Part shown: positions 5,049 through 55,808 of the stretch, piece by piece | Position numbering within the stretch: the stretch's first letter is position 1 | Layout: every line of letters begins with the position of its first letter | IMG/VR virus record: IMGVR_UViG_3300029288_000110 | Location: 1 to 64,000 of that record | Source of the DNA: a virus | Taxonomy: Duplodnaviria; Caudoviricetes | Strand: one strand, 5' to 3' | DNA length: 64,000 bases | The notes under the pieces: model-generated | The model's database searches: none | Told to the model about the DNA's origin: nothing | What the model saw: the letters and a program-made list of their open reading frames with translations, nothing else | Position numbers and translations under genes: made by a program

Positions 5049-6328
5049 ACATGAGTGTGAAACTCAAGACCAAATATAGCAACATCAAGGACCTGCGCGG
5101 CCGGCAGGAAGAAATCGGCAAGACCATCACAAAGGTTTTTGAGGAAGCCGAGCAGGAAGGCAAGGACATCGATTTCAGCCGGGTGAAGTGTCTGGAAGGC
5201 GCGGACACCGCCGCCAAGCTGGCCGCGCTGAAAGCACTTAATGACGAATCCGCCGACATCCATGACGATATCAAGGCGCTGGAAGAGGCGGAGCAGATCA
5301 TCCGCAAGGCGCGGCAGGCAGCCGATGAGGCGGCCGGGTTCAAAGAGACAGACCTGCGCGAACAGCCCGGGAAAAAGGCAACCCAGAACAAATCCCTTGG
5401 CGAGCAGTTCCTGGAAAAGAAGCTCAATAAAAAGAATGCCACCGGCGAGCTCGATATCGACCTGAAGACCATCGTGCAGACCGGCGCCGGCTGGGCCCCG
5501 GAATCCATGCGGCTGCCCAGGGTCGAGCTTTACCCGCTGCGCGCACTGCGCGTGGCCGACGTTTTCCCGACCTACACCACACAGAACTCCGATATCAAGT
5601 ACATGGAAGAGACGACCCATACCAACAATGCTGCGGAAATCGCGGAGGAGACCGATGCCTCCAGCCCCACAGCTTATGGTGAAGCGGCTATCGGCATGAC
5701 GGAACGCTCCGTGCCGATTGAAAAGATCCCGGTATGGATTCCGGTCACCGAGGAACAAATGGATGATGTGGTCGGCTTCGGTGAATTCATCAACAACCGC
5801 CTGACTTATATGGTTAGGAACCGCCTCGATGGGCAGCTTATCGCCGGCGATGGCTCGACGCCCAACCTCCGTGGCGTGCTGAACGCTTCCAATATCCAGA
5901 CCCAGGCCAAGGGCTCTGACCCGACTCCCGACGCTTTCTTTAAAGCGATGACACTGGTACGTGGCTACACGGCCGGGACCGGCTTCGCCGAGCCTTCCGC
6001 CTGCTTTATTCACCCGCTGGACTGGCAGGACATCCGCCTGCTCCGGACGGCTGACGGCATTTACATCTTCGGGAATCCGACCGAGATGGGGCCGGAAAGA
6101 CTCTGGGGTGTCCCTGTAGTAGTGACTCCCGCGGAAACGCAGAATACCGGCGCGGTTGGCGACTTTATAAACTATGCCGCCCTGTATGTCAAACGCGGAC
6201 TTTCCATCGAGACCACCAATAGCCACGGCGAATTATTCGCCTCCGGCGTCCTGGCTATCAAAGCCACAATGCGCTGCGCGGCAGTGTATTTCCGCGGTTC
6301 TGCTTTCTGCAAGGTCACCGGAATATAA
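5045..6328 (+). CDS. HK97-fold major capsid protein
   Basis: coiled-coil delta domain, GDGSTPNLRGVLN, RLWGVPVVVT, VGDF motifs. Confidence 0.95.
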   Translation: MNMSVKLKTKYSNIKDLRGRQEEIGKTITKVFEEAEQEGKDIDFSRVKCLEGADTAAKLAALKALNDESADIHDDIKALEEAEQIIRKARQAADEAAGFKETDLREQPGKKATQNKSLGEQFLEKKLNKKNATGELDIDLKTIVQTGAGWAPESMRLPRVELYPLRALRVADVFPTYTTQNSDIKYMEETTHTNNAAEIAEETDASSPTAYGEAAIGMTERSVPIEKIPVWIPVTEEQMDDVVGFGEFINNRLTYMVRNRLDGQLIAGDGSTPNLRGVLNASNIQTQAKGSDPTPDAFFKAMTLVRGYTAGTGFAEPSACFIHPLDWQDIRLLRTADGIYIFGNPTEMGPERLWGVPVVVTPAETQNTGAVGDFINYAALYVKRGLSIETTNSHGELFASGVLAIKATMRCAAVYFRGSAFCKVTGI

Positions 6329-6367
6329 GAAAGGTCGAGCAAAAAGTAAAAAGTAACGAGGTGAAAA

Positions 6368-6769
6368 ATGCCTATTATCGAAGGCGCAGTACAGCGCGGA
6401 GTAGCTAAATTCATTTACGATTTCGCAGCGCGTGGAGGTGCAGCCGGAGACATCGTGCTTGCCGGGGAGCCTCTACCCAAGAATGCCATTGTCTGGGATG
6501 GGGTGGTAGATGTAATCACGCCACTGACCGGCGGGGCCGGGGCGACGGCGGCAGTATCCACCGCGCAATCCGCCAACGACCTGATAGCGGCGGCAGACAT
6601 AACCGGGGCCCCATGGTCCACGGCGGGGTCTAAAGCAATCGTTCCGGTGGGGGATGCCTCTCATAGCATCAAGATGACGGCAGACAGGGCCCCGAAGCTG
6701 GTAATCGCGACCAATGACCTGACGGCCGGCAAATTCAACCTGTTCATCGAGTATTACCTTTCCGACTAA
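6368..6769 (+). CDS. putative capsid decoration/cement protein
   Basis: directly after capsid gene, beta-rich, ends LTAGKFNLFIEY; RBS GAGGTG. Confidence 0.55.
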   Translation: MPIIEGAVQRGVAKFIYDFAARGGAAGDIVLAGEPLPKNAIVWDGVVDVITPLTGGAGATAAVSTAQSANDLIAAADITGAPWSTAGSKAIVPVGDASHSIKMTADRAPKLVIATNDLTAGKFNLFIEYYLSD

Positions 6770-6829
6770 AAGAATATCCCGGTAAATCTAAAGCTGCCGG
6801 GATAAAACAAAAAATAACAAGGAGAAAAA

Positions 6830-7522
6830 ATGGAAGGATTAGTTCAGCAGGCAGAAAAATATATCATCCCTGACGGCTCGGCAAACCGTCCCTACATGTC
6901 CCGGCGCGGTGAATTATTCACCCAGGACTGGATCCAGGCGGCCATCCTGGAAGGTTACGGTTTCATCGCCAATGTCGGCGCATTATCCACCCCCGTAGTG
7001 GGAGGCGGCGCCGGCACGGTGGTGGACCTCGACCAGCCGGAATTCGGCATGATCATCCCGGACGGAAAGACCATCATCCCGATCCGTCTGGCCATCCAGC
7101 TCACCACACCGCTTCTGGCCACCGATGCCGATGAGGTAGAAGCGCTGGCCTTCGTCGATACGACCGCGGCCACCGTAGCGGCAGCCCTTGACGGGACCTG
7201 GGCCAATACCATCACTCCCAAAAACATGCGGATTGCTCTCACCAACAGGAAGAGCTCGACCTGCACGGTAAAAAGTGTCTGCTCCGGAGATACCACCGAC
7301 CCGACAGAGAGCATCGACCTGGCGCACATCCAGCTTACCGGCGATGTCCAGGGCACGGCGGCCACCGCATTGTGGACCAAGAACGAGTTGCTTTACGAAC
7401 CGAAGAATCCGCCCCTCATCGTGGGCCCGGCTTCTCTGTTCGCTTACTGGGGCGGCACGGTAGCCACCAGTGCCTTCATGCAATTCTTCTGGATTGAATT
7501 GCCCAGCACCCAGTTACAGTAG
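6830..7522 (+). CDS. putative virion structural protein
   Basis: RBS AAGGAG; beta-rich Ala/Thr/Gly composition within head module. Confidence 0.55.
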   Translation: MEGLVQQAEKYIIPDGSANRPYMSRRGELFTQDWIQAAILEGYGFIANVGALSTPVVGGGAGTVVDLDQPEFGMIIPDGKTIIPIRLAIQLTTPLLATDADEVEALAFVDTTAATVAAALDGTWANTITPKNMRIALTNRKSSTCTVKSVCSGDTTDPTESIDLAHIQLTGDVQGTAATALWTKNELLYEPKNPPLIVGPASLFAYWGGTVATSAFMQFFWIELPSTQLQ

Positions 7523-7629
7523 ATTGACGCCCGCCCTTCGGCAAGGCGGGGAAAAGGCCGGGGGTGGTTCGGCTCCTCCTTTCCACCCCCGGTACATTTT
7601 TAAGGAGGGCATTAGAAGGAAGGAATATT

Positions 7630-7797
7630 ATGAAATGCAAACATCCTTATTACCATTATGTTGATGGAGTTTTGACCTGTGTACAATGCGGCCAGCCATC
7701 ACCGAAATTTAAAAGCCCGGATATCGAGGACAAAGCATTCCGGCAGCATGAATCCAAACCACTGACGGCGGGAGAGAAAACCGCAGCAAAAAAATAA
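7630..7797 (+). CDS. small Cys/His zinc-binding hypothetical protein
   Basis: MKCKH...CVQCG after AAGGA RBS; 3' part of ORF 7564..7797. Confidence 0.55.
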   Translation: MKCKHPYYHYVDGVLTCVQCGQPSPKFKSPDIEDKAFRQHESKPLTAGEKTAAKK

Positions 7798-7845
7798 TAA
7801 AAACCCCTTAAATCCCCCTTTATGAAGGGGGAGATGGAGTCATTT

Positions 7846-8943
7846 ATGTCCCTTAAAATAAAAACTCCGCCGGCGATAGAGCCGATTTCCCTGGTGGAAG
7901 CCAAGGCGCATTTAAGGCTCAACGGCCTGGCGCTGGAGGACAGCATCACCACAGAGCAGAGCATAGCCCCAGGAGCGCACGTAATCGCCGCCAGCTACTC
8001 GCTGGAGGGAAACGCAGTAGAAGTATCCGGGTATGAAGCCATCGTCAACCTGGTGGCCGGGACGAACGGGGCCGGGGGAACGGTGACGGTAAAAATCCAG
8101 GAGCGGGAAGACCTGGTGACGGGGGCGTGGGTGGACTGGGGAACGGCGTTCACGGCGGTGACGGAAGCTAACGATAACGCGACCTATGAAAAGGCATATA
8201 CCGGGAGCTGCCGGTACATCCGGGCGGTGGCCACGGTAGCCGGGGCGACATGCTCGTTCGGGGTGGATGTGGTAAAGATGGCGGGCCCGGCGGCGGAAGA
8301 CGACGCTATCACATCCTACATCAAAGCGGCGCGGCATTACGCGGAGTGGACACTCGCCTGGCGGTCCTACATTACACAGACGCTGGAGCTGTGGCGGGAT
8401 GACTGGCCGGAGGAAGATTTTATCAAACTGCTCCAGCCGCCGGTGCAGGAGCCGGCGATAACAGCGGGGAGCTTTGCCATTGGAACAGTATACCGTATTT
8501 TGACGGTGGGGACGACGGACTTCACGCTCATCGGGGCGACGAGCAACACGGTGGGGGCAATCTTTACCGCGACGGGGGCGGGAAGCGGGACGGGAACGGC
8601 CACGGCCAGCGGCATCGTCAGGTATTATGGCACCGATGACACGGTATATTACCTCGACGGCAGTGTTTACGGCCTGGCCAAAGAGGACCAGTACGCGCCG
8701 AAAATCGCATTAAAGTACGGGCAAAGCTGGCCGAGTACCACGCTGCGGCCATATCAGGCCATATGCATAACCTATATCGCGGGTTACGGGGATGCGGCAA
8801 CGGATGTACCGCCGGATGTGATTAACGGTCTGAAGCTCCTGATATCCGACGCTTACGAAAACAGGGGGGACATCATCACCGGGACCATCAGCTCGAATCT
8901 AAAACGGGCGCAGGACCTGATATGCGGCGCCAAGGCGTATTAG
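7846..8943 (+). CDS. head-tail connector (gp6/gp15-like) with inserted domains
   Basis: EPISLVEAKAHLR, YIKAARHYAE..RSYITQTLEL, ITYIAGYG..VP..YENR motifs. Confidence 0.85.
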   Translation: MSLKIKTPPAIEPISLVEAKAHLRLNGLALEDSITTEQSIAPGAHVIAASYSLEGNAVEVSGYEAIVNLVAGTNGAGGTVTVKIQEREDLVTGAWVDWGTAFTAVTEANDNATYEKAYTGSCRYIRAVATVAGATCSFGVDVVKMAGPAAEDDAITSYIKAARHYAEWTLAWRSYITQTLELWRDDWPEEDFIKLLQPPVQEPAITAGSFAIGTVYRILTVGTTDFTLIGATSNTVGAIFTATGAGSGTGTATASGIVRYYGTDDTVYYLDGSVYGLAKEDQYAPKIALKYGQSWPSTTLRPYQAICITYIAGYGDAATDVPPDVINGLKLLISDAYENRGDIITGTISSNLKRAQDLICGAKAY

Positions 8944-8962
8944 CGGAACAGGAAGGAACGGC

Positions 8963-9289
8963 ATGACAAGGGCAGGAGAATTCAGGACGCCCATCGCCTG
9001 GTATAAAGACATTCACGTTACGGACCCGGCGACTTTAGAATCGGTGACGGATTACGCTTTGGTGGGGACGGACTGGGCGGCGGTGGAGTGGGCAAGCGGC
9101 CGGCTTTATGAGGAGGCCAAGCAGCTCAACAGCGAGGTGCAGGGCGTTATCAGGACGCGGTACCGGCGGGACGTTCAGCCGGCATGGCGTATAAAGCTGG
9201 GGCGGCGGTGGATACAGATAATTTCCGTCTCCAATTACAAAGAGCAGAACCGGGAGCTATGGCTTGATTGCAAAGAGGCTTTGGATTAA
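8963..9289 (+). CDS. head closure protein (SPP1 gp16-like)
   Basis: RAGEFRTPI, WAAVE..SGR, IRTRYRRDV motifs; synteny. Confidence 0.85.
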   Translation: MTRAGEFRTPIAWYKDIHVTDPATLESVTDYALVGTDWAAVEWASGRLYEEAKQLNSEVQGVIRTRYRRDVQPAWRIKLGRRWIQIISVSNYKEQNRELWLDCKEALD

Positions 9290-9585
9290 TGAACGCTTAT
9301 GAAATACTGGAAATAAAATACAACGCAGATAAAGAAGAAATACAAAAAGCCTATAGGTCACTGGCTAAACGATTTCATCCGGATATTTGTAAAGAACCCG
9401 GAGCGGTAGAAAAGATGAAACTCATTAATGCTGCCTACGACCTTTTAATGAAACCACAGCCTGCCCAGCCAGTAATACATCGGCAGGGAATGATGGTAAG
9501 AGAGGTCAAGATATATCAATACGGATGGCAGAGTACTGATAGCTGTACCGCTGATTCTTCATATACTACCGGATATTATTATTAG
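9289..9585 (+). CDS. DnaJ (J-domain) protein
   Basis: YEILEI..EIQKAYRSLAKRFHPD..INAAYDLL with intact HPD. Confidence 0.88.
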   Translation: MNAYEILEIKYNADKEEIQKAYRSLAKRFHPDICKEPGAVEKMKLINAAYDLLMKPQPAQPVIHRQGMMVREVKIYQYGWQSTDSCTADSSYTTGYYY

Positions 9586-9612
9586 CCCAAATATTTCACA
9601 TGGAATATCGGA

Positions 9613-9640
9613 AGCCCTGGGAAACCGGGGCTTTTTTATT
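9613..9640 (+). terminator. intrinsic terminator-like hairpin after J-domain gene
   Basis: AAGCCCTGG-GAAA-CCGGGGCTT followed by T-run. Confidence 0.6.
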
Positions 9641-9651
9641 TGGAGAGATGA

Positions 9652-10119
9652 ATGGCGACAGGCGTATCGATTTATTTAAAAGGGCTTGATGAGCTGGAGA
9701 AGACCTGCAACAGGGCAGTCAAATACATGGACGCCGGTAAAACCAAGCTCCTGCTGGAACAGGCGAATCTGGTCAAAGCCCGGATAAAAGACCTGGCGGC
9801 AACACAGCAGAAGGGCAGTGTTAATCACAGCGCGCAGAAAGCCGCCTACGCAGCAGCCCAGTCCTCCACCACGGTTTACCCAACGGTAGCTTATGCCGGC
9901 ATCCGCCCGAGGGCAATGCCCCACGCTCATCTGGTAGAAGAAGGGCACGGCGGTCCGCATCCGGCGCCGCCTCATCCCTTCGTGCAGAAGGCCTGGCAGG
10001 AAATGAAGCCAGTGGTGCGGCAGAACATCGAAGGCAAAGCGGGTGCGATTGTGGATGCGGCATTCAGCCAGGCCAAAGGTAATGCTGTAAGCGGCCCCAT
10101 AGGGTTCACCGAAGTGTAA
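9652..10119 (+). CDS. HK97 gp10-like neck/tail-completion protein
   Basis: KGLDELEK start, HAHLVEEGH and PPHPFV motifs; synteny. Confidence 0.8.
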   Translation: MATGVSIYLKGLDELEKTCNRAVKYMDAGKTKLLLEQANLVKARIKDLAATQQKGSVNHSAQKAAYAAAQSSTTVYPTVAYAGIRPRAMPHAHLVEEGHGGPHPAPPHPFVQKAWQEMKPVVRQNIEGKAGAIVDAAFSQAKGNAVSGPIGFTEV

Positions 10120-10135
10120 CGGGAAGCAGAAGTTT

Positions 10136-10534
10136 ATGGAAATAGAAACGGCCTTAAAAGCGTTCTTATTAACGCAGACGGACCTCACTGGGAAAGTGGG
10201 GGAGCGGATATATATACTTCAGGCCCCGCAGACGGCCGCCAAACCGTACATCGTTATCGAGCGTGCGGGGGACCCCGGGGTCCATACCTCGGACGGGCCG
10301 GTGGCGGTTGGGGATACCGGCGTCATCATCGGGTGCTACGGGACAACCTGGACATCGGCGCGGGAAGTGGCGGTCCTGGTCAAGGCGGCGCTCAACGGGA
10401 AAACGGGTGTAATTGGCGGGGCAAGCGGCGTCACCGTCAACCCGGTTTTTTATGACGACGAGGGGAGCGGCTTCGATACCAATGTCAGCCTGTATTACGT
10501 CGACCTTGAATTTACCTGCCAGACGGAGGGATAG
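10136..10534 (+). CDS. tail terminator (DUF3168-like)
   Basis: VGERIY..APQ..PYIV motif; synteny before tail tube gene. Confidence 0.8.
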   Translation: MEIETALKAFLLTQTDLTGKVGERIYILQAPQTAAKPYIVIERAGDPGVHTSDGPVAVGDTGVIIGCYGTTWTSAREVAVLVKAALNGKTGVIGGASGVTVNPVFYDDEGSGFDTNVSLYYVDLEFTCQTEG

Positions 10535-10544
10535 AAAAAAATGA

Positions 10545-11003
10545 GGTAAATATCCCTTGACGACCCATAGGAGAGTAGAGTGAAAAAATATCTACAAACA
10601 ATCATTGATTCTAAAAAAGGAGATTGCTTAGAAGCATGTATTCGGTGTTTGCTCGAAGATGAAAGTGTACCTCCTTTTAAAGATGGCATTCATGATTGGT
10701 ATTATATGGCTAACGAATGGTTGTCAAGATACAATTTGCAACTTGGATTTGTTGGCTATGGTGCAATGCCGCTACCGCGTGGTAATTTTATATTTTGTGT
10801 GAAATCAGCTTTATTTGAAGGTACTACTCATGCTGTTATTGCACGGGAAAATCCTGAAACTGGGCTGCCTGAAGTTATCTGGAATCCAAACCCTCAAGAC
10901 CCACGCGGTATAAACATTGACCCTAAACAAGGGTCGCATATTTACCTGTTAATAGTGCTCGACCCTTCAAAATTAAAATACGGGTTATGAAGGGATAGTT
11001 ACG
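10545..11003 (+). mobile_element. non-autonomous single-gene insertion cassette (MITE/MIC-like)
   Basis: left end GGTAAATATCCCTTGACGACCC; right end reverse complement CGTAACTATCCCTTCATAACCC; flanks AAAAATGA (10537-10544) and AAAGATGA (11004-11011), 7/8 identical. Confidence 0.75.
10580..10990 (+). CDS. hypothetical cassette passenger protein (GDC..ACI, HAV motifs; possibly Cys-protease-like fold)
   Basis: AT-rich ORF filling the IR-bounded cassette; GTG start after AGGAG. Confidence 0.7.
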   Translation: MKKYLQTIIDSKKGDCLEACIRCLLEDESVPPFKDGIHDWYYMANEWLSRYNLQLGFVGYGAMPLPRGNFIFCVKSALFEGTTHAVIARENPETGLPEVIWNPNPQDPRGINIDPKQGSHIYLLIVLDPSKLKYGL

Positions 11004-11007
11004 AAAG

Positions 11008-11223
11008 ATGAAATGCCCTAATCCGGAATGCGTCAACGGGAAGGTAAAAATCGAAAGCCCTATTACATCCGATGTAATGGGAGAGGAAGAAATTGGCTGC
11101 GAGGTCTGCCACGGCGCGGGGGAGATTACGGAAGACCTGGCGCCGCTGATATATAACGCGCTTTACCGGGCAGTGGAACTGCTCGAATCAATAAACGAAA
11201 AATTGGGAGGAATAAAGAAATGA
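11008..11223 (+). CDS. small zinc-finger protein
   Basis: CPNPECVNG...CEVCHGAG. Confidence 0.7.
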   Translation: MKCPNPECVNGKVKIESPITSDVMGEEEIGCEVCHGAGEITEDLAPLIYNALYRAVELLESINEKLGGIKK

Positions 11224-35755: not shown

Positions 35756-35785
35756 AGTAACTATCCCATGACATACAGTAGGAGG
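35756..35785 (+). repeat. orphan RBS-bearing cassette end
   Basis: AGTAACTATCCCATGACATACAGTAGGAGG, similar to reverse complement of 39398-39425 and 43142-43169. Confidence 0.65.
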
Positions 35786-35790
35786 CTAAA

Positions 35791-36111
35791 GTGACAGAGA
35801 CTAAATATAGAGCTAAGAATATCAAATCTGGCGAATGGGTTTATGGGTGTTATGTTTATTTTGGTGTAAAACCTGCGTTTATATATTCTGCTATTGGGGA
35901 ACGGATAGAGGTTGAACCTCTTACAGCAAGAAGATTTACCGGCCTCAAGGATAAGAACGGCAAGGAGATTTACGAGGGGGATGTGCTTCAAGCAACATCA
36001 ACTGGCGGGAATATATTATCTCAAAATCCAAGATGGAGGGCAAAGGGCTATCTGCGGTTTATGCGCTCGACGATGGACTTCATCAGCCCTCCATCCGCTA
36101 CGTCTTTTTGA
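35791..36111 (+). CDS. YopX-family protein (C-terminus possibly degenerate)
   Basis: KYRAK..GEWVYG, FTGLKDKNGKEIYEGDVL. Confidence 0.8.
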   Translation: MTETKYRAKNIKSGEWVYGCYVYFGVKPAFIYSAIGERIEVEPLTARRFTGLKDKNGKEIYEGDVLQATSTGGNILSQNPRWRAKGYLRFMRSTMDFISPPSATSF

Positions 36112-36188
36112 ATTGATAAAAGTAAATTAGATTGGCTATTCGGCAAACTGTATAGAAACAGTATAGCATAATATTGTTGTACAGGGTA

Positions 36189-36217
36189 TTGACAAATAGG
36201 CAAACAGTGTGTATAAT
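36189..36217 (+). promoter_or_regulatory. consensus sigma70 promoter inside ISL3 left end
   Basis: TTGACA-17 nt-TATAAT. Confidence 0.75.
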
Positions 36218-36245
36218 AGGGTTAGAAAGTAAAGAAAAGGGGGAC

Positions 36246-36368
36246 ATGAAAATGCAATGCCCAACCTGCGGTAAAACCGCTAAGAGGATTAAGAGCAAGA
36301 AGTTCCCCGGCTGGTATTATTGCAATAACCCATCTTGCAATACAACCGCTTTTGAAAATAAGTCATAG
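36246..36368 (+). CDS. small zinc-ribbon passenger protein
   Basis: MKMQCPTCG..YCNNPSC after AAGGGG. Confidence 0.55.
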   Translation: MKMQCPTCGKTAKRIKSKKFPGWYYCNNPSCNTTAFENKS

Positions 36369-36380
36369 GGAGGTAACATC

Positions 36381-36746
36381 ATGGGAATACGAGGACAAGG
36401 TAAGTTCACCACAAAGGCATCACGAAAACAAAACGATAAGTTCTTAGAGGAGTTCAAAACTCACCAATCAACATTCAAACAAGCCGATGTTGTACAAGTA
36501 GTCACTAAAGGTTGCGGGACATTCCCCGGACTTATTGTGGCTCGCATTTCAGTAATGAGCGGGGAAACTGTCTATTCCGTAGCTGTTACACGCTATGGTG
36601 GTCTCTGGATTAAGGGCGACTGGGTTATAGATACCTACTGGAACCCGATTGGAGACAAGGCACTTGAGCAAGATTATCCCGGCACGATGGAAGAGATTTT
36701 GAGCAAGTTACCAGTAATCAAAGCGTGGCAGGCGTCATTGCAATGA
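36381..36746 (+). CDS. hypothetical passenger protein
   Basis: RBS GGAGGT. Confidence 0.65.
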   Translation: MGIRGQGKFTTKASRKQNDKFLEEFKTHQSTFKQADVVQVVTKGCGTFPGLIVARISVMSGETVYSVAVTRYGGLWIKGDWVIDTYWNPIGDKALEQDYPGTMEEILSKLPVIKAWQASLQ

Positions 36747-37039
36747 CAGACAATCAAAAGCAGGAAGTCATTAAATTACTAATCGGCTATTATCCTGCTG
36801 GTACATACCATGCAATACCAGAAGCCCTATTCCGGCTTGTCCGGCTACATGGCTTATCCCTAAAGAAAGCCAAAGAGTTGCTATTAGAGGTTATACGACA
36901 AAACGGCTGGAGCATGTGCCCTAGTTCAATAGGAGCAATGACACTAGGAAATGTTAATGGAATGAGGGGCGAAAAGCGGATATTACAGTGGTACATACGG
37001 ACTGATTGCTATTACACTCATTTTTATATCCTTAAATAG
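36743..37039 (+). CDS. hypothetical passenger protein
   Basis: ATGA overlap with upstream gene. Confidence 0.55.
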   Translation: MTDNQKQEVIKLLIGYYPAGTYHAIPEALFRLVRLHGLSLKKAKELLLEVIRQNGWSMCPSSIGAMTLGNVNGMRGEKRILQWYIRTDCYYTHFYILK

Positions 37040-37062
37040 GGTATCATAAAGGAGTCTTAAAA

Positions 37063-37248
37063 ATGTCTTCACCAAGTAACTACCCTCCCGGAGTATCAGG
37101 GTTTGAATTTCAAGTGAACCCGCCAGAGCGCTTACCCAAAGAACCTAGTAAAAGACTCAAACCATGCAGTCATGCTATTAGCATTCCATATTGTTCTCAT
37201 AGAACAACATCTGGTCTTTGCAGAGTAAGATGGTGCGATAAAGCGTAA
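37063..37248 (+). CDS. small passenger protein
   Basis: RBS AAGGAG; SNYPPGVSG start. Confidence 0.55.
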   Translation: MSSPSNYPPGVSGFEFQVNPPERLPKEPSKRLKPCSHAISIPYCSHRTTSGLCRVRWCDKA

Positions 37249-37715
37249 CTTATTATGCAGGGGGTGACCCCATGCGGGGTAAAATAGATACGAATTTAGG
37301 GTGGTTACGAGTGGTCAAAACCAGACCAGTTAGCTACGGATGGTCAAACCGATACCAGACCGCATTAGCTTTGGTGGTCAAACCGCTTAAAACCAGTCTA
37401 GACTTGATGGTTAGCCGGATAGCTTTTTGGCTGACCATGTTTACAAGACTGATTGTATCAGGGGGAGGGTTACCCTCTACCCCCCGACCCTTAAGCGTAA
37501 AAAGTGGGAGAACGTATTTGCTAGGTGCGTATGTGCTGGCAGTAGAAAACCCGTATTTGCTGGAAGTGAGAGCTAGTGAAAACCTGTAAAGAGCTAAAGT
37601 GTGTCTGCTTTGAGTGTCAGACACGGAAGAAAGACAGACCGAAATGCGGTATGTGTCCTGGGAGAATCGCCAAACCGGATTGTACAGGGCTTACCGTTTG
37701 CATTAAAGGGGATAA

Positions 37716-38996
37716 ATGAACATCTTGAACTTGCCCGACTGGGAAGTCATAGAGCTTAAAGAGAGCGAGTACGATTACGCTATCCATGCCAAGTACACGC
37801 CGGAGCCGACCGCTTGTATCCGATGCGGGGTTATCGGGCAACTATACCGGCATGGTATCAAGAGGCAACGATTCATGGACTTACCAGTTCACAACAAGCG
37901 TGTTGGCTTGATAGTGCATCGGCAGCGTTACCTTTGCCGAGCCTGCAAAAAGACCAGCTTTCAACCATTGCCGGATGTGGCTGACCACCACTCGTCAACC
38001 AAGAGGCTTTTAGCCTACATCGGCAAGGAATCCATGAAGCGTACCTTTGTTGGGGTAGCCGATGATACCGGAATCCATGAGCGGACTATCCGGCGTTTAT
38101 TCGCTATCGAGGTAGCCCGATTAGACCAAGAGGTCAAATTCGAGACACCCCGATGGTTGGGGATTGATGAAGTTCACCTTGTAAAGAAGGCAAGGTGTCT
38201 CTTGACCAACGTGGAGCAACGGACTGTCATTGATATGCTGGCAACCAGAACAAAAGACGTGGTTAGCCGATACTTGTACCGGATGCCCGACCGCCAGTAC
38301 ATCGAGCTGGTGGCTATGGATATGTGGCAACCCTACAGGGACGCAGTAAGGGATATTCTACCGCAAGCCACAGTGGTCATAGACCGCTTTCACGTTATCC
38401 GGTTAGCCATTCAGGGCATGGACACGATACGAAAGGATACCAGGGCGAGCCTTACGGCACGTCAAAGCCGGACACTCAAGCGTGACCGCTATATTCTTTT
38501 CCATCGCCGGAGCGACCTTGACGAACAAGACCAGTTCATACTTGACCTGTGGTTAGGGCAGTTCCCTATGCTTGGCAAGGCGTATCAGTTCAAAGAGGAC
38601 TTCTGTGACCTCTGGATGGTCAAGGACAGGCAAGAAGCCATAGAGCGGTATGAAAACCTTAAGGCGAGCATCCCGACCGAGCTACAGCCCGCCTTCAAGC
38701 CTCTGACAACGGCTGTAGGCAACTGGACAGGCGAGATATTCGCATGGTGGGACCATCCGGTAACAAACGCTTATACAGAGGCCATAGCAGGGCTTGTGAA
38801 GCTAACCAACCATGCAGGCAGAGGGTATTCGTTCAAGGCGATACGGGCAAAGTTGCTTTACTCTAACCTGCCGACCCCTCACAGACCAGTGTTTGACAGG
38901 TCATTGAAAGAGCGACCGCCCTTCATGCCACTGGAAGAAATTATAGATTACGGAGTTAAGTTTTCCACACTCCGCATAATGTTGGAAGGGGGATAG
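37716..38996 (+). CDS. ISL3-family transposase
   Basis: zinc finger CIRCG..CRAC, LGIDEVH, VAMDMWQPY, IDRFHV, TNAYTEA, GRGYSF. Confidence 0.96.
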   Translation: MNILNLPDWEVIELKESEYDYAIHAKYTPEPTACIRCGVIGQLYRHGIKRQRFMDLPVHNKRVGLIVHRQRYLCRACKKTSFQPLPDVADHHSSTKRLLAYIGKESMKRTFVGVADDTGIHERTIRRLFAIEVARLDQEVKFETPRWLGIDEVHLVKKARCLLTNVEQRTVIDMLATRTKDVVSRYLYRMPDRQYIELVAMDMWQPYRDAVRDILPQATVVIDRFHVIRLAIQGMDTIRKDTRASLTARQSRTLKRDRYILFHRRSDLDEQDQFILDLWLGQFPMLGKAYQFKEDFCDLWMVKDRQEAIERYENLKASIPTELQPAFKPLTTAVGNWTGEIFAWWDHPVTNAYTEAIAGLVKLTNHAGRGYSFKAIRAKLLYSNLPTPHRPVFDRSLKERPPFMPLEEIIDYGVKFSTLRIMLEGG

Positions 38997-39034
38997 TTTG
39001 TTTGAATGCATTACACATCATACGCCGGAAAGCC

Positions 39035-39329
39035 TCTCTTTCTTGATAGCATTGGTTACTCGCCATAGGTCGGCGGCATCCGCATTAAGGGCACTTTCGG
39101 CTTTCATGGCTCGCTCTGCCCATCGGTGTCTATTCCCTACCAGACAGGGGATACATTCATACATTGTGCCGACTTCAAGGTAGTCTGGTGGTTTGCCAGC
39201 TTGTGGATGTGGATTCTTAGACATCTGCAACCCACATTTGGCACATAGTTTTGGCTTCGTTTCCACGCCCTTCGCCGAATTATCATTTTGTGTGTTCATT
39301 TGCTCTTTCCTCCTGTTTGCCGAATAGCC
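39035..39329 (-). mobile_element. truncated second ISL3-type end with one passenger ORF (ATG 39299)
   Basis: GGCTATTCGGCAAAC on - strand from 39329, 15/15 identical to 36134, followed by AGGAGG and a Cys-rich ORF that stops inside the ISL3 right end. Confidence 0.6.
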
Positions 39330-39397
39330 CATAAATTTCCCCTGGGTACATTCGCAAAAGACCATATTTTGACAATTTGGTTTTATGTTTCATCTTA

Positions 39398-39425
39398 ACC
39401 TCCTACTGTATGTGGGATACTTACC
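39398..39425 (-). repeat. orphan RBS-bearing cassette end
   Basis: 39398-39426 identical over 29 nt to 43142-43170; passenger ORF from ATG 39393 interrupted at 39329. Confidence 0.8.
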
Positions 39426-39561
39426 TGCTTTCTTTATATTGGCCTGTAGCTTCTTGGACTACCCTAAAGGCATTGACCGCAAAATCGTGTTCCTTTTTCT
39501 TAGTCATACTACACACTACCTCATTAACTGGCAACCGCTTTACTTCATGATTTGTGTCCAT
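39421..39561 (-). pseudogene. small basic protein truncated by the cassette end
   Basis: MTKKKEHDFAVNAFRVVQEATGQ resembles the N-terminus of small basic proteins seen beside IS elements; stop codon lies inside the cassette IR. Confidence 0.4.
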
Positions 39562-41599: not shown

Positions 41600-42454
41600 T
41601 CACTCCCAGTCCTTTAAAAACGGATGGTATTTGAATATTTCTGCATCAACCTCCGGCATCCGGGGAGTGGTGTAGATATTCATCATTCCGCCGCCGGCCC
41701 ACCGCAAGAACTGATACACCCTTGTCTGGTCCAGGATACGCTTCCCATCCGCCCCCCTTAACTCATCCAATACCGTCGCCAGGCCATGGCGGACACCGTG
41801 GTAGCATTTTTTAGGAACGAATTTCACCCCGGCGACATTAGCTATCTCATGAAAAATGGAGAAGCGGCGATTATACCCCACGGGAGGATAAGTGTATTTG
41901 AACACAAAGGGGGCGATTTGCTCCGGCACGTCATGCTCCCGCAGCATACCGCCTTTCTCCGTATGGATGATGATGGTTTTCTTATACGGATGAATATCTT
42001 CCGACCGGACGCCAAAAAGTTCTCCGACCCGAAGGCCATATGTTGTCGAGAGCGCTATGGTGTTCAACCACTGGGGATTGGAGCTCTTCTTGGCAGTCAG
42101 TATGAGCGCCCGGATTTCTTCCGCACTGTAGGAAAAGCGTGAGGCGAGGTCAATCATCTGCCGGTTCACCTTGGGCAGCTTCACCGGCACCCTTAGCCCA
42201 TACATGCGGAAGAGGCAGCCTATCGGACCCCTGATGATGTAGTTTACATACGTTTGGTCTCGATTCTTCTTCAGATAGTCGAGATAGGTATAAAGCACAT
42301 CACGCTCCTGCCAGTTCTTTCCCTTGAGCCAGGTGAAGTAATCATCCACATGCGCCCTGTACTGGCTCTTGGTCGATTCGCTATAGTACTGGATTTCGTG
42401 CTCTAGCTCTTTAAATATGGACTTCCTGTCTGTTGGTATTTTTTCCGTAGTCAT
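41600..42454 (-). CDS. tyrosine recombinase/integrase
   Basis: YGLRVGE (R), EKGG (K), HGVRH (HxxR), LRW, IY catalytic set. Confidence 0.88.
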   Translation of the reverse strand: MTTEKIPTDRKSIFKELEHEIQYYSESTKSQYRAHVDDYFTWLKGKNWQERDVLYTYLDYLKKNRDQTYVNYIIRGPIGCLFRMYGLRVPVKLPKVNRQMIDLASRFSYSAEEIRALILTAKKSSNPQWLNTIALSTTYGLRVGELFGVRSEDIHPYKKTIIIHTEKGGMLREHDVPEQIAPFVFKYTYPPVGYNRRFSIFHEIANVAGVKFVPKKCYHGVRHGLATVLDELRGADGKRILDQTRVYQFLRWAGGGMMNIYTTPRMPEVDAEIFKYHPFLKDWE

Positions 42455-42470
42455 TACTACTCCTCTACCC

Positions 42471-42683
42471 TCAGCGTTTAAAAGTCTTCCTCTCATGCGG
42501 TTTCTTCCGCTGGTAAGTAGCCTCCAAGGAAGTCATCTTGGGATTCCAGTGATAATCAATCACCATCACATCACAACCCAGTTTCTTCCTGATAGCGCTT
42601 GTAACAGCGGAGGACCCGCACCCGGGCGCCTCATCAAATTCCTCCATGGTTATAGTTATCTTTTCCGTATCAATATATTTCAC
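42471..42683 (-). CDS. hypothetical protein
   Basis: GTG start after GGGAG, downstream of tRNA. Confidence 0.5.
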   Translation of the reverse strand: MKYIDTEKITITMEEFDEAPGCGSSAVTSAIRKKLGCDVMVIDYHWNPKMTSLEATYQRKKPHERKTFKR

Positions 42684-42695
42684 TTTTCTCCCTTT

Positions 42696-42783
42696 TGGCG
42701 GAGCGGGAGAGATTTGAACTCCCGGGAGCAGGCCCCAACGGTTTTCGAGACCGCCGCCTTAAACCAGACTCGGCCACCGCTCC
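42696..42783 (-). tRNA. tRNA-Ser(CGA)
   Basis: GGAGCGG/CCGCTCC-GCCA acceptor, anticodon arm CGGT-CTCGAAA-ACCG, long variable arm, GTTCAAATC T-loop. Confidence 0.93.
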
Positions 42784-42793
42784 AATATTCTTT

Positions 42794-43169
42794 GGTAAGT
42801 ATACCTTCATCTACAGTATTTCTTGAAATTGGCCATAATCCTCATCTTCAAGTTCTGCCATCTCTGAATCAGTCTCGAATTGGCAATTTTCGCATAGTCC
42901 ACTTTTGTTGAAATCGAAAAATTCGTTGCCGCCCCAAAACTCACCACACATCCAACAAAAGCCCTCTGAATGGCAATGTTCGCCGCAATACCAAGATATA
43001 TCATATGGCTTTTCGCTTGATTCCCAATCAACTAACCTACATTGGATGGTATCAAAGGAGCTGCAACCTTCATGTTCACAACGATGATTGACTTCAACTA
43101 ACTCTCTCTGAATCATATCGCCAATTTCTTTAATCATTTCGACCTCCTACTGTATGTGGGATACTTACC
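42794..43169 (-). mobile_element. non-autonomous single-gene insertion cassette (MITE/MIC-like)
   Basis: ends GGTAAGTATACCTTCATCTACAGTA and reverse complement GGTAAGTATCCCACATACAGTA; perfect 8-bp duplication TATTCTTT at 42786-42793 and 43170-43177. Confidence 0.88.
42811..43137 (-). CDS. Cys-rich zinc-binding cassette passenger protein
   Basis: CEHEGC, CGEHC, CWMCG, CENC; fills the cassette. Confidence 0.75.
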   Translation of the reverse strand: MIKEIGDMIQRELVEVNHRCEHEGCSSFDTIQCRLVDWESSEKPYDISWYCGEHCHSEGFCWMCGEFWGGNEFFDFNKSGLCENCQFETDSEMAELEDEDYGQFQEIL

Positions 43170-43197
43170 TATTCTTTTAGCCTCTCTCTAATCCTTC

Positions 43198-55733: not shown

Positions 55734-55808
55734 TGGTAGCGGGGGGAGGACTCGAACCTCCGACCTCCTGGTTATGGGCCAAGCGAGCTGCCTCTGCTCT
55801 ACCCCGCA
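55734..55808 (-). tRNA. tRNA-Met(CAT), initiator-like
   Basis: T-GCGGGG/CCCCGC-TACCA acceptor with unpaired 1:72, CAT anticodon, GTTCGAGTC T-loop. Confidence 0.9.

Follow-up and report, generated by a model that had tools for sequence, protein, structure and literature searches.

Architecture of the 376-bp unit

The locus lies in a 64-kb window, the whole stretch of DNA that was analyzed, which forms the first part of a 101.8-kb virus contig; positions outside the window are given as contig positions. At 42794-43169 the virus carries a 376-bp element (c2) with a single open reading frame (ORF) and inverted ends of about 25 nt, flanked on both sides by the target site duplication (TSD) TATTCTTT, whose copies at 42786-42793 and 43170-43177 are identical (8/8), the former abutting the terminal GG of the element. 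The 3' terminal inverted repeat (TIR; 42794-42818, minus strand, nhmmer E 2.7e-4) reads GGTAAGTATACCTTCATCTACAGTA on the plus strand and TACTGTAGATGAAGGTATACTTACC on the cargo strand. The cargo ORF (42811-43137, minus strand) encodes 108 aa, starting at the ATG at 43135-43137 and ending in a TAG stop (42811-42813) that falls inside the 3' TIR. A Shine-Dalgarno sequence, GGAGG (43143-43147, minus strand), directly follows the 5' TIR, 5 nt before the ATG at 43137. The 5' TIR (43148-43169) reads GGTAAGTATCCCACATACAGTA on the minus strand, which is the family consensus minus the three nucleotides TTG. This consensus, GGTAAGTATCCCTTGACATACAGTA, is the perfect 25-nt end of an autonomous element in another contig (L052), of the type carried by c2, and the c2-type 3' end ATGAAGG[G/T]ATA[C/G]TTAC[C/G] is also present in other virus contigs.

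An earlier, sequence-only reading of this DNA had described a 376-bp unit with one ORF, inverted ends and a perfect 8-bp duplication, the ribosome binding site (RBS) lying at the upstream end and the stop codon within the downstream end, and all of these features were found where it had placed them. Its ends of 12 plus 7 nt had been drawn too short.

The insertion point is located 2 nt upstream of a tRNA-Ser gene of the virus, and this tRNA was the sole match in an Rfam search. Between 42500 and 43700, no terminator-like site was detected in or beside c2, and the best sites in a promoter scan matched 9 of 12 consensus positions, four such sites being present compared to 2.1 expected from shuffled sequences. 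The possibility that TATTCTTT is the att core of the neighboring integrase was rejected because its copies directly abut the inverted ends and are just 8 bp long. The c2 cassette had no match among 50,697 GenBank phage records.

The cargo protein is Cys/His-rich with an acidic tail, and 12 of its Cys/His positions are invariant among homologues. Homologues with 62% and 57% identity are encoded by ordinary operon genes that lack cassette ends; the C-terminus of the c2 protein, FQEIL, is the preserved counterpart of their natural FQDLL. Searches of Pfam, PHROGs and the ESM Atlas returned no family match and no function, and the structure predicted from a four-sequence alignment had a mean pLDDT of 46, too low to support a search by fold.

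Other cassettes and solo ends on the contig

A profile built from 55 ends was searched against the contig with nhmmer and returned exactly eight ends (E 2e-6 to 0.07), which correspond to three complete cassettes of 376-531 bp (c1, c2 and c3) and two solo 5' ends (at 35756 and 39425). That exactly eight matches were obtained in 101.8 kb, and that 27 of the 43 candidate end pairs in all DNA collected carry an 8/8 TSD (about one third of the pairs elsewhere have none), indicates that the ends on this contig are not chance occurrences.

Cassette c1 occupies 10545-11003 on the plus strand (10537-11011 with its duplications, AAAAATGA and AAAGATGA, which agree at 7/8 positions), between the gene for the tail-completion protein gp17 and the next gene of the tail operon. 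Its ORF (10580-10990, plus strand, 136 aa) belongs to phrog_5845, for which the ESM Atlas hinted weakly at Peptidase_C39 (15% of the members of one cluster) and at nothing else. Cassette c3 (contig 100371-100901) is complete, has a perfect TSD (TTATATAT, 8/8) and carries a DUF1643 cargo. The first solo end, together with its YopX ORF, covers 35756-36111 on the plus strand; the stretch 35756-35785 is a family-typical 5' end (35756-35780, AGTAACTATCCCATGACATACAGTA, E 1.5e-4) followed by GGAGG, and the ORF (35791-36111) starts at element position 36 and is truncated, matching YopX at 1.2e-10 over profile positions 1-79 of 128. The second (39283-39425, minus strand) consists of an end at 39404-39425 and a 36-aa ORF at 39283-39393. 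This end shares its RBS and its 3-nt-deleted form with c2, so that the TTG deletion is found twice on the contig; 39390-39426 and 43134-43170 are 92% identical over 37 nt, the last 28 nt being identical. The profile search of the contig found no 3' partner for either solo end.

The related ends that had been proposed at 10545/11003, 39425 and 35756 are thus real, and the four loci counted within the window all stand, to which c3, outside it, adds a fifth. The cargo genes have a GC content of 0.39-0.44, lower than their surroundings. None of c1, c2 and c3 contains a transposase ORF, and a six-frame search of the whole contig with PF12762 gave no match, i.e., no IS1595 transposase. The description of the cassettes as transposase-free therefore holds for each of them; an ISL3-family transposase gene at 37716-38996, in an element whose ends are unrelated, had been overlooked.

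A family of elements with the same ends

At least 27 elements with the same ends and perfect 8-bp TSDs were found in other virus contigs and in MAGs of Chloroflexota, Acidobacteriota and Verrucomicrobiota, and the TSDs of the family are 89% A+T. Amongst its members are autonomous elements of 1.5-2.8 kb that encode IS1595 transposases (Pfam PF12762, 6e-47; NCBIfam NF033547, 1e-61 to 7e-66). Ends of the form GGTAA[G/C/T]TATCCCTTGACA..GTA surround transposase genes in L052, L069, L030, L012, L061, L046 and L011 and in at least 20 MAG elements. The exact TACAGTA-type end of c2 occurs in L052 and L069, the nearest relatives coming from MAGs of Dehalococcoidales and Anaerolineales, and the CCCGTA-type end of c1 and c3 is matched by L046 and L011. 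Further end pairs with 8-bp duplications and transposase-bearing elements with matching ends, both of which the sequence-only reading had sought, are therefore at hand, and its guess of an IS1595-type enzyme proved right.

The autonomous relatives (L030, L052, L069, L046 and others) combine a Zn-ribbon and DDE_Tnp_IS1595 transposase with one to three passenger ORFs. Some virus contigs hold autonomous and non-autonomous members together (L005 with L052, and both kinds within L011), DNA-methylase passengers are found in autonomous elements (L069, L082, L083) as well as in cassettes (L011, L044), and the passenger-side end of L069 agrees at 85-91% with the first 46 nt of the cassettes. The two ends of an element agree at 9.79 of 13 positions between positions 13 and 25, compared to 8.42 of 13 after shuffling, and none of 10,000 shuffles reached the observed value in this test, which ignores kinship among elements; judged by this agreement, the two ends appear to behave as functional pairs.

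The passengers encountered were the Cys/His-rich protein, phrog_5845, DUF1643, YopX, N6_N4 and Dam-like methylases, and phrog_3193. The layout of TIR, GGAGG and start codon is repeated in other cassettes, most of which place the start codon at element position 35-36. An intact cargo ORF is present in 12 of 13 cassettes, the exception being the one in L056, and all 12 stop within 29 nt of the 3' end. As had been proposed from the loci in the window, the cassettes are co-oriented with their operons: all eight for which both flanks run one way share that direction. In L044 and L046, cassettes are adjacent and nested. Searches of the 50,697 GenBank phage records recovered three distant IS1595-like matches only (~31% identity).

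Evidence of movement

The virus contigs L044 and L046, which are 98.8% identical, carry reciprocal filled and empty alleles of one autonomous element and one cassette, and deleting either element along with one TSD copy restores identical sequence. Near-identical contigs that differ by single insertions show recent activity of the cassette family in viruses. The site of c1 is empty in the related phage L101, where the gp17 stop and the ATG of the next gene are 11 nt apart, and the methylase cassette of L011 has an orthologous empty site in L031. The same element was also found at different sites, as with a 1672-bp IS in L011 and L046 and a 427-bp cassette in L040 and G002.

The empty sites anticipated by the sequence-only reading thus exist for L044/L046 and for c1, and none was found for c2. 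Of the outcomes that it had named as refuting, each was checked and none spoke against its interpretation, which is supported. The empty c2 allele would read ...CTCCAATATTCTTTTAGCC...; a gapped pattern for this junction had no match in metagenome contigs, the neighboring 136-aa protein has no relatives in viral contigs, and the integrase neighbor led to one 1.4-kb metagenome contig with a different context.

Probable origin and proposed mobilization of the cassettes

Altogether, these observations suggest, with a probability that we put at roughly 85%, that the 376-bp unit is a non-autonomous derivative of the IS1595 family, a mobile insertion cassette with TIRs of ~25 nt, one passenger gene and no transposase. 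This virus contig has gained accessory genes through three cassettes of the kind, c2 among them. An 8-bp TSD and a transposase that combines a Zn ribbon with a DDE domain characterize the IS1595 elements (PMC8101967). The cassettes have the duplication and the TIR type and carry no Zn-ribbon and DDE transposase of their own; since this ORF is absent, c2 is classified as a derivative of the family and not as an IS. Their ends also appear to fit GGnnATTAT, which we take to be the consensus of the ISNwi1 group.

In the mechanism that we propose, an IS1595-type DDE transposase supplied by an autonomous relative elsewhere in the cell, either on the host chromosome or on a co-resident virus, would bind both ends of c2 and, 2 nt upstream of the tRNA-Ser gene, insert it into an intergenic, AT-rich 8-mer that would be duplicated in the process. 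The 5' end of the cassette corresponds to the passenger-side end of autonomous elements, with the RBS immediately after it, and the 3' end contains in-frame stop codons. Because c2 lacks its own promoter and terminator, its transcription would most likely occur by read-through from the surrounding operon, whose orientation it shares. Mobilization in trans and read-through expression are what we infer, and any benefit of the cargo to the virus would be an inference of the same kind. For mobilization in trans there is indirect evidence in the filled and empty alleles and in the contigs on which autonomous and non-autonomous members coexist. The 3-nt loss in the 5' end of c2 alters the spacing between terminal and subterminal motifs and might impair recognition.

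This last point bears on a second explanation, in which the insertions are genuinely IS1595-derived and are now fossils, ancestral and immobile (c2 by its 3-nt end deletion), that are kept or are decaying as ordinary genes. The contig has no cognate transposase, two of its five loci are solo ends without a 3' partner, the TSD of c1 has already diverged by one base, the YopX cargo is truncated and, elsewhere, the L056 cassette lacks an intact ORF. We nevertheless consider this explanation unlikely, if worth serious attention: c2 and c3 are flanked by perfect TSDs, the family has been active in viruses recently, as single insertions that set near-identical contigs apart show, and the 3-nt-deleted end must have been copied at least once, since it is present at two loci with 28 nt identical.

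Far less probable is that the contig's own ISL3 transposase moves the cassettes. This gene, which lies between cassettes in the window, is intact and has a second copy at contig 99019-100299, the two being 99.9% identical; c3 and both solo ends lie less than 400 bp from ISL3 ends (370 bp from the right end of the element for the one at 39425), and ISL3 elements also generate 8-bp duplications. The ISL3 element ends, GGCTATTCGGCAAAC and GGCTTTCCGGCGTAT, however, have only GG in common with those of the cassettes, and every transposase found between cassette-type ends is of the IS1595 family, with ISL3 in none. Derivation of the cassettes from the ISL3 family was likewise rejected, as that element terminates in GGCTATTCGGC and GGCTTTCCGGC, which do not match the GGTAAGTATCCC of the cassettes. 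The repeated ISL3 element also concerns the contig itself, which comes from a metagenome assembly and may be a join of two viruses at this repeat; when the junction expected for the tailed-phage part without ISL3 was searched for in viral contigs, nothing matched. A third alternative, that the ends are conserved modules for regulation or recombination (intergenic repeats with an RBS, comparable to the promoter-stem-loop cassettes of T4-type phages) between which genes are shuffled by homologous recombination, would account for the RBS and TTGACA hexamer in the 5' end, the intergenic, operon-oriented positions and, through recombination between copies, the end pairs without duplications, but is highly improbable given that the ends are inverted rather than direct, surround IS1595 transposase genes, flank 27 elements with perfect 8-bp duplications of differing sequence, and delimit filled and empty alleles that differ by exactly the element plus 8 bp.

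Wider implications

Precise intergenic gains of single phage genes, such as morons, anti-defense genes and methylases, are mostly ascribed to illegitimate recombination. The IS1595-derived one-ORF cassettes, with translation signals within their ends, make a concrete vehicle for such gains visible, and they are present in unrelated viruses and in host genomes, with cognate transposases identified and recent filled and empty alleles available. If the cassettes are active, they would account for some of the mosaicism in the accessory genes of environmental phages, such genes could be found from their flanks alone, and a compact natural insertion module would be available as a possible tool for adding genes to the operons of phages in laboratory strains.

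A more tentative reading, which we favor less than its contrary, joins these observations into a transposon-based counterpart of the integron that serves viruses. It would draw on a shared pool of promoter-less cassettes whose ORF is fitted end to end, with ends that may have evolved for insertion into operons without polar damage (the RBS after the 5' end, and stops in two frames along with a GAAGGG in the 3' end able to serve the displaced downstream gene). Through IS1595 transposases, cassettes would then travel between viruses that are unrelated (in this case a tailed phage and an apparently tailless second virus) and the host chromosomes of Chloroflexota and other soil or sediment bacteria, and each cassette would be paired with its own transposase lineage by subterminal "address" motifs (TACAGTA, ACAGGTA, CCCGTA, CACGTA).

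Comparison with known systems

Classical morons bring their own promoter and terminator. The label "moron", used in the sequence-only reading, suits c1 in that it adds a gene between two neighbors that adjoin each other in L101, and the cargo GC content is below that of the surroundings. An extra gene between otherwise adjacent neighbors was found for c1 and not for c2, and the term fits the cassettes only loosely because they bring an RBS and stop codons without a promoter or terminator.

Integron cassettes carry an attC site and are inserted at a single attI by IntI without target duplication. The cassettes described here resemble them in forming a pool of units with one ORF each, mostly without a promoter, that rely on external transcription and can be stacked in arrays (L044, L046). 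In contrast to attC-, IntI- and attI-specific integration, their insertion appears to proceed by DDE transposition, with a TSD, at many AT-rich sites. An integron-like system was rejected, since the ends are inverted and are accompanied by 8-bp duplications at AT-rich sites that are many and different.

The mycobacteriophage elements MPME1 and MPME2 are 439 bp long, with inverted repeats, one small ORF and varied sites in close phages (PMC3029335). The cassettes share with them the ultra-small size, the inverted repeats, the single small ORF and the different sites in closely related phages; all MPME copies hold the same ORF and have a 6-bp addition at IR-L (PMC3029335), whereas cargo and length vary amongst the IS1595 cassettes and an 8-bp duplication is formed. 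For MPME no cognate transposase family is known, whereas the parent IS family of the cassettes has been identified. Identity with MPME was rejected, given the differing cargo and length and the 8-bp duplications.

The closest likeness is with mobile insertion cassettes (MICs), which are described along with IS carrying passenger genes in PMC3129680, citing Siguier 2009. As far as that account goes, the type example is MIC231 of IS231 in Bacillus cereus (De Palmenaer et al. 2004, cited in PMC3129680), in which IS-type ends surround a passenger unrelated to transposition, no transposase is present, mobilization is thought to occur in trans by the cognate IS, and the target duplication is typical of the parent IS. 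Our cassettes likewise have IS ends around unrelated passengers without a transposase, and a cognate autonomous IS exists off this contig. Relative to MIC231 as portrayed there, the parent is IS1595 instead of IS4/IS231, the elements are carried by viruses whose uncultured hosts are probably Chloroflexota, the cargo is fitted almost exactly end to end (RBS after the 5' end, start at 35-36, stop in or at the edge of the 3' end), and the cassettes have no promoter and follow the direction of the operon. The IS1595 "transporter IS" (Siguier, Gagnevin and Chandler 2009, cited in PMC3129680; family traits in PMC8101967) have ends starting in GG and an 8-bp TSD, like the cassettes, which differ in having lost the transposase gene altogether. 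The cassettes are therefore of a known kind, the mobile insertion cassette, and what is new here is an IS1595-type variant.

Cassettes on the viral contig

The window is taken from the start of one IMG/VR virus record of 101,758 bp (CheckV completeness 97%), of which it covers 64 kb, and the whole contig was scanned with a profile built from 55 ends gathered outside it. Eight ends (terminal inverted repeats, named 5' or 3' relative to the cargo) were recovered at E values of 2e-6 to 0.07, the next best match having an E value of 1.7, and these ends make up three complete transposase-less cassettes and two solo 5' ends. Cassette c1 (10545-11003, plus strand) is flanked by the target-site duplication (TSD) AAAAATGA/AAAGATGA and carries a 136-aa cargo (phrog_5845), c2 (42794-43169, minus strand) is flanked by TATTCTTT, and c3 (contig 100371-100901, plus strand) is flanked by TTATATAT and encodes a DUF1643 protein (2.7e-30). 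The solo end at 35756 precedes a truncated YopX gene with its start codon at element position 36, while that at 39425 has an identical 28-nt stretch in common with the c2 end, in which both lack the same 3 nt of the family consensus. The related ends that the sequence-only reading had placed at 10545/11003, 35756 and about 39425 were all recovered, and the passengers of these loci and of c2 differ (phrog_5845, the c2 cargo, the YopX remnant and the 39425 remnant). The GC content of the cassettes (0.39-0.44) makes them AT-richer than much of the contig.

In cargo orientation, c2 consists of the first TSD copy AAAGAATA (43177-43170), the 5' end GGTAAGTATCCCACATACAGTA (43169-43148), the RBS GGAGG (43147-43143) five bases before the ATG (43137-43135), an ORF of 108 codons, and the 3' end TACTGTAGATGAAGGTATACTTACC (42818-42794), within which the TAG stop lies (42813-42811), followed by the second TSD copy AAAGAATA (42793-42786). 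Re-reading of the ends, TSD, RBS and stop found every detail of the earlier description of this 376-bp unit to be correct. The minus strand is also the orientation of the surrounding genes. The insertion lies 20 nt downstream of the preceding gene's stop codon and 2 nt from the 5' end of a tRNA-Ser(CGA) gene (42696-42783), on its upstream side, and a search of c2 and its flanks revealed no convincing promoter and no terminator-like site. The complete tRNA-Ser(CGA) gene is adjoined by a tyrosine-recombinase-like gene (41600-42783 for the pair), with a Phage_integrase match of 8e-5 that is below the cut-off. A second tRNA gene (Met), located at 55734-55808, has an 80% look-alike at contig 101382-101456.

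The end family in other genomes

Patterns of the 3' end and of the 5' end were each run against IMG/VR. Total matches to the 3' pattern were near the estimated chance number; many of them have a 5' end as partner at a distance of some hundreds of bases and show a perfect 8-bp flanking duplication. The DNA fetched contained 43 candidate end pairs in all, of which 27 had an 8/8 duplication and one had 7/8, so that further end pairs with 8-bp duplications, as expected by the sequence-only reading, do exist. The duplicated 8-mers are all different, are 89% A+T in the 13 short cassettes and typically (e.g., TATATATA, TAAAAAAA and AATCTTTA) lie between a stop codon and the RBS or start of the next gene.

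Each end measures about 25 nt and has a terminal 12-mer that hardly varies, a block reading TTGACA or TTCAT, and a subterminal motif that closes with GTA and whose types are TACAGTA, ACAGGTA, CCCGTA, CACGTA and CAAGTA. Paired ends of the same element agreed at 9.79 of 13 positions in the variable part versus 8.42 for shuffled pairings (0 of 10000 shuffles reached the observed value), an indication from sequence that the two ends of an element match, to which no probability is attached since related elements share ancestry.

A Dehalococcoidales MAG contig (L133, G002:C13:12000-28000) holds four small cassette-type end pairs within 5.5 kb (5259-10728), delimiting units of 232-427 bp. None of these four pairs has a matching 8-bp duplication, which suggests either that copies have rearranged with each other or that virus-derived DNA was binned with the MAG.

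Cassette architecture, cargo and orientation

Architecture was compared in 13 short cassettes. The start codon lies at element position 36 in seven of them (c1, c3, L005, L011, L040 and both cassettes of L044, the L-numbers being comparison loci), at position 35 in L053 and at position 33 in c2, which becomes 36 if the 3-nt deletion is undone; the remnants have it at 36 (YopX) and 33 (39425). Where the cargo ORF is intact (12 cassettes), the stop codon lies 13 nt from the 3' end in five (TGA in TTATGAAGG), 17 nt from it in three (TAG in CTGTAGATGAAGG) and 26-29 nt from it in four. The thirteenth, a 593-bp cassette in L056 (6712-7304) with good ends and the perfect duplication AGTTTATA, lacks an intact ORF downstream of the RBS and ATG, and its cargo appears to have decayed.

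The cassettes carry diverse genes of kinds usual for phage accessory genes, including DUF1643, YopX, two N6_N4 methylases, a Dam-like methylase, phrog_3193, phrog_5845, several small Cys-rich proteins and unknowns, and this cargo may benefit the virus. Homologues of the c2 cargo are ordinary operon genes without cassette ends, and their C-termini (...EFQDLL) correspond to that of the c2 cargo (...QFQEIL); the cassette therefore contains a complete gene whose last two codons and stop fall within the end. In this small protein family, 12 Cys/His positions are invariant and the tail is acidic, and structure prediction for the c2 cargo gave no usable model.

The sequence-only reading had described the cassettes as co-oriented with the local operon. 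This holds in all eight cases in which both flanking genes share a direction (c1, c2, L005, L011, L031, L040, L044 and L053), an outcome expected once in 256 under random orientation, in a small sample with crude ORF calls at the foreign loci; in the remaining informative cases at least one neighbour runs the same way as the cassette. Co-orientation fits promoter-less cassettes that depend on read-through, by which they would be expressed, or selection against antisense insertions. At several loci (window 11004-11030 and the 3' flanks in L011, L031 and L044), GAAGGG(A) in the cassette 3' end lies 10-25 nt before the start of the displaced downstream gene, for which it may serve as a substitute RBS; at c1 the original GGAGGGATAG is replaced by GAAGGGATAG.

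Movement of family members

Family members have inserted recently in viruses. Virus contigs L046 and L044 have flanks that are 98.8% identical; L046 carries a 1672-bp autonomous element (TSD ACCTATTA) that is absent from L044, L044 carries, 6 bp further on, a 1438-bp transposase-less cassette (TSD TATATATA) that is absent from L046, and removal of either element with one duplication copy yields the same sequence, GTTACGACCTATTATATATAAAGGAAAG. In a related phage (L101; 60-82% protein identity over three neighbouring genes), 11 nt separate the gp17 stop from the next ATG exactly at the site of c1, whose duplication includes the ATG of the gene after gp17, and L031 has an empty site where L011 carries its methylase cassette. 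Empty sites, which had been proposed as a check, are thus found for several family members; a search for an empty allele of c2 itself found none. Another virus contig begins with part of a c2-like cargo and its 3' end, a second copy whose flank is different.

Additionally, the 1672-bp IS occupies different sites in L011 and L046 (91% identity), a 427-bp phrog_3193 cassette occupies different sites in virus contig L040 and a Dehalococcoidales MAG contig (84.5% identity), and one cassette is nested within another in L044. The L044/L046 region (100-1700 and 1-1800 of IMG/VR 3300031651_000030 and 3300031654_000174, respectively) is a hot spot of stacked elements, where 697-bp methylase and 320-bp cassettes lie inside the 1438-bp cassette, a cassette 3' part is repeated 14 nt upstream of a full copy, and the autonomous IS of the sister contig sits at a neighbouring 8-mer.

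The cognate transposase

No IS1595 transposase was found on the contig in any frame, and c1, c2 and c3 were presumably mobilised in trans. Every one of the longer family members (1.5-2.8 kb) encodes a protein of about 290-310 aa. The sequence-only reading had guessed at an IS1595-type enzyme, and transposase-bearing elements of this type with matching ends exist: the ends of L052 (1903 bp, TSD TAAATTAA) are perfect over 25 nt (GGTAAGTATCCCTTGACATACAGTA) and of the c2 type, and L011 and L046 (1672 bp) have CCCGTA-type ends as in c1 and c3, one end of L046 closely resembling the 5' end of c3. The nearest bacterial-genome relatives of the L052 enzyme are in MAGs of Dehalococcoidales (81%) and Anaerolineales (74%), with remoter ones in other Chloroflexota, Acidobacteriaceae and Verrucomicrobiota, and most lie between ends of the same kind with perfect 8-bp duplications. 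At least one end occurs in 19 of 301 sampled genomes of the class Dehalococcoidia, versus 0 for a reversed-pattern control.

As read from the sequence, one end of the autonomous elements forms a good sigma-70-type promoter for the transposase, in which the TTGACA of the end is the -35 element and TATAAT or TATACT follows 16-17 nt on; next to the other end come an RBS and the passenger gene or genes. The first 46 nt of the cassettes match the passenger-side end of L069 at 85-91%, and DNA-methylase passengers are present both in autonomous elements (L069, L082 and L083) and in cassettes (L011 and L044). The simplest origin of the cassettes is a passenger-carrying IS that lost its transposase half. 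Beside the transposase gene, a conserved ORF of 62-70 aa (...KEFEKLL.KASQPL...) occurs in L011 (881-2552), L046 (99-1770) and L052 (2236-4138), across two end types, and could encode an accessory or regulatory protein of this IS1595 lineage.

The contig also carries an ISL3-family element of 2901 bp, with five small ORFs upstream of a 426-aa transposase, in two direct copies that are 99.9% identical (window 36134-39034 and contig 97437-100337). ISL3 is not the mobilising enzyme, since the ends of this element (GGCTATTCGGC and GGCTTTCCGGC) are unrelated to those of the cassettes and no ISL3 gene lies between cassette-type ends in the elements found. The 8 bp to the left of the first copy (ATTAGATT) equal those to the right of the second, whereas the inner flanks TTAGTTTC and TCTCTTTC differ, so that the contig resembles two genomes connected through the IS, one a tailed phage (about 40 kb; 1-36133 plus 100338-101758) and the other about 61 kb in size (39035-97436 plus one IS copy). 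Such a junction could reflect a true co-integrate, or the assembly could have passed through the repeat. The ISL3 left end (GGCTATTCGGCAAAC) recurs as an exact reverse complement at 39315-39329, 281 bp past the right end of the element and inside small ORFs downstream of the solo end at 39425; this copy could belong to a mini-element or serve as an alternative outer end.

Comparison with known systems

Amongst known systems, c2 does not belong with ISL3 derivatives, integron cassettes or mycobacteriophage mobile elements (PMC3029335). It is not itself an IS, as it contains no transposase, and it fits the term 'moron' only as an extra gene between conserved neighbours. The IS1595 family is defined by 8-bp duplications and a transposase combining a Zn-ribbon with a DDE domain (PMC8101967). 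Members with passenger genes are established, as are the concepts of MITEs, of mobile insertion cassettes (MICs) and also of solo ends activated in trans, in PMC3129680 (with citations of Siguier et al. 2009 and De Palmenaer et al. 2004). Given the IS1595 traits and the known concept of MICs, c2 is a MIC of the IS1595 type.

The literature search returned no paper in which cassettes of the IS1595 type are described as carrying accessory genes of phages, and GenBank phage records contained nothing similar to the cassette. Altogether, the observation made from the sequence alone is confirmed, with the anatomy of the cassettes, their family, the cognate transposase-bearing relatives and recent insertions of family members shown, and its interpretation is supported in silico. 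The kind of element (a MIC or transporter-IS derivative) is known and the variant is new. What sets it apart is that its cargo ORFs reach from one end to the other, that the ends carry translation signals and fall into subterminal specificity types, and that it occurs in both the tailed phage part and the second virus part of the contig as well as in host MAGs.
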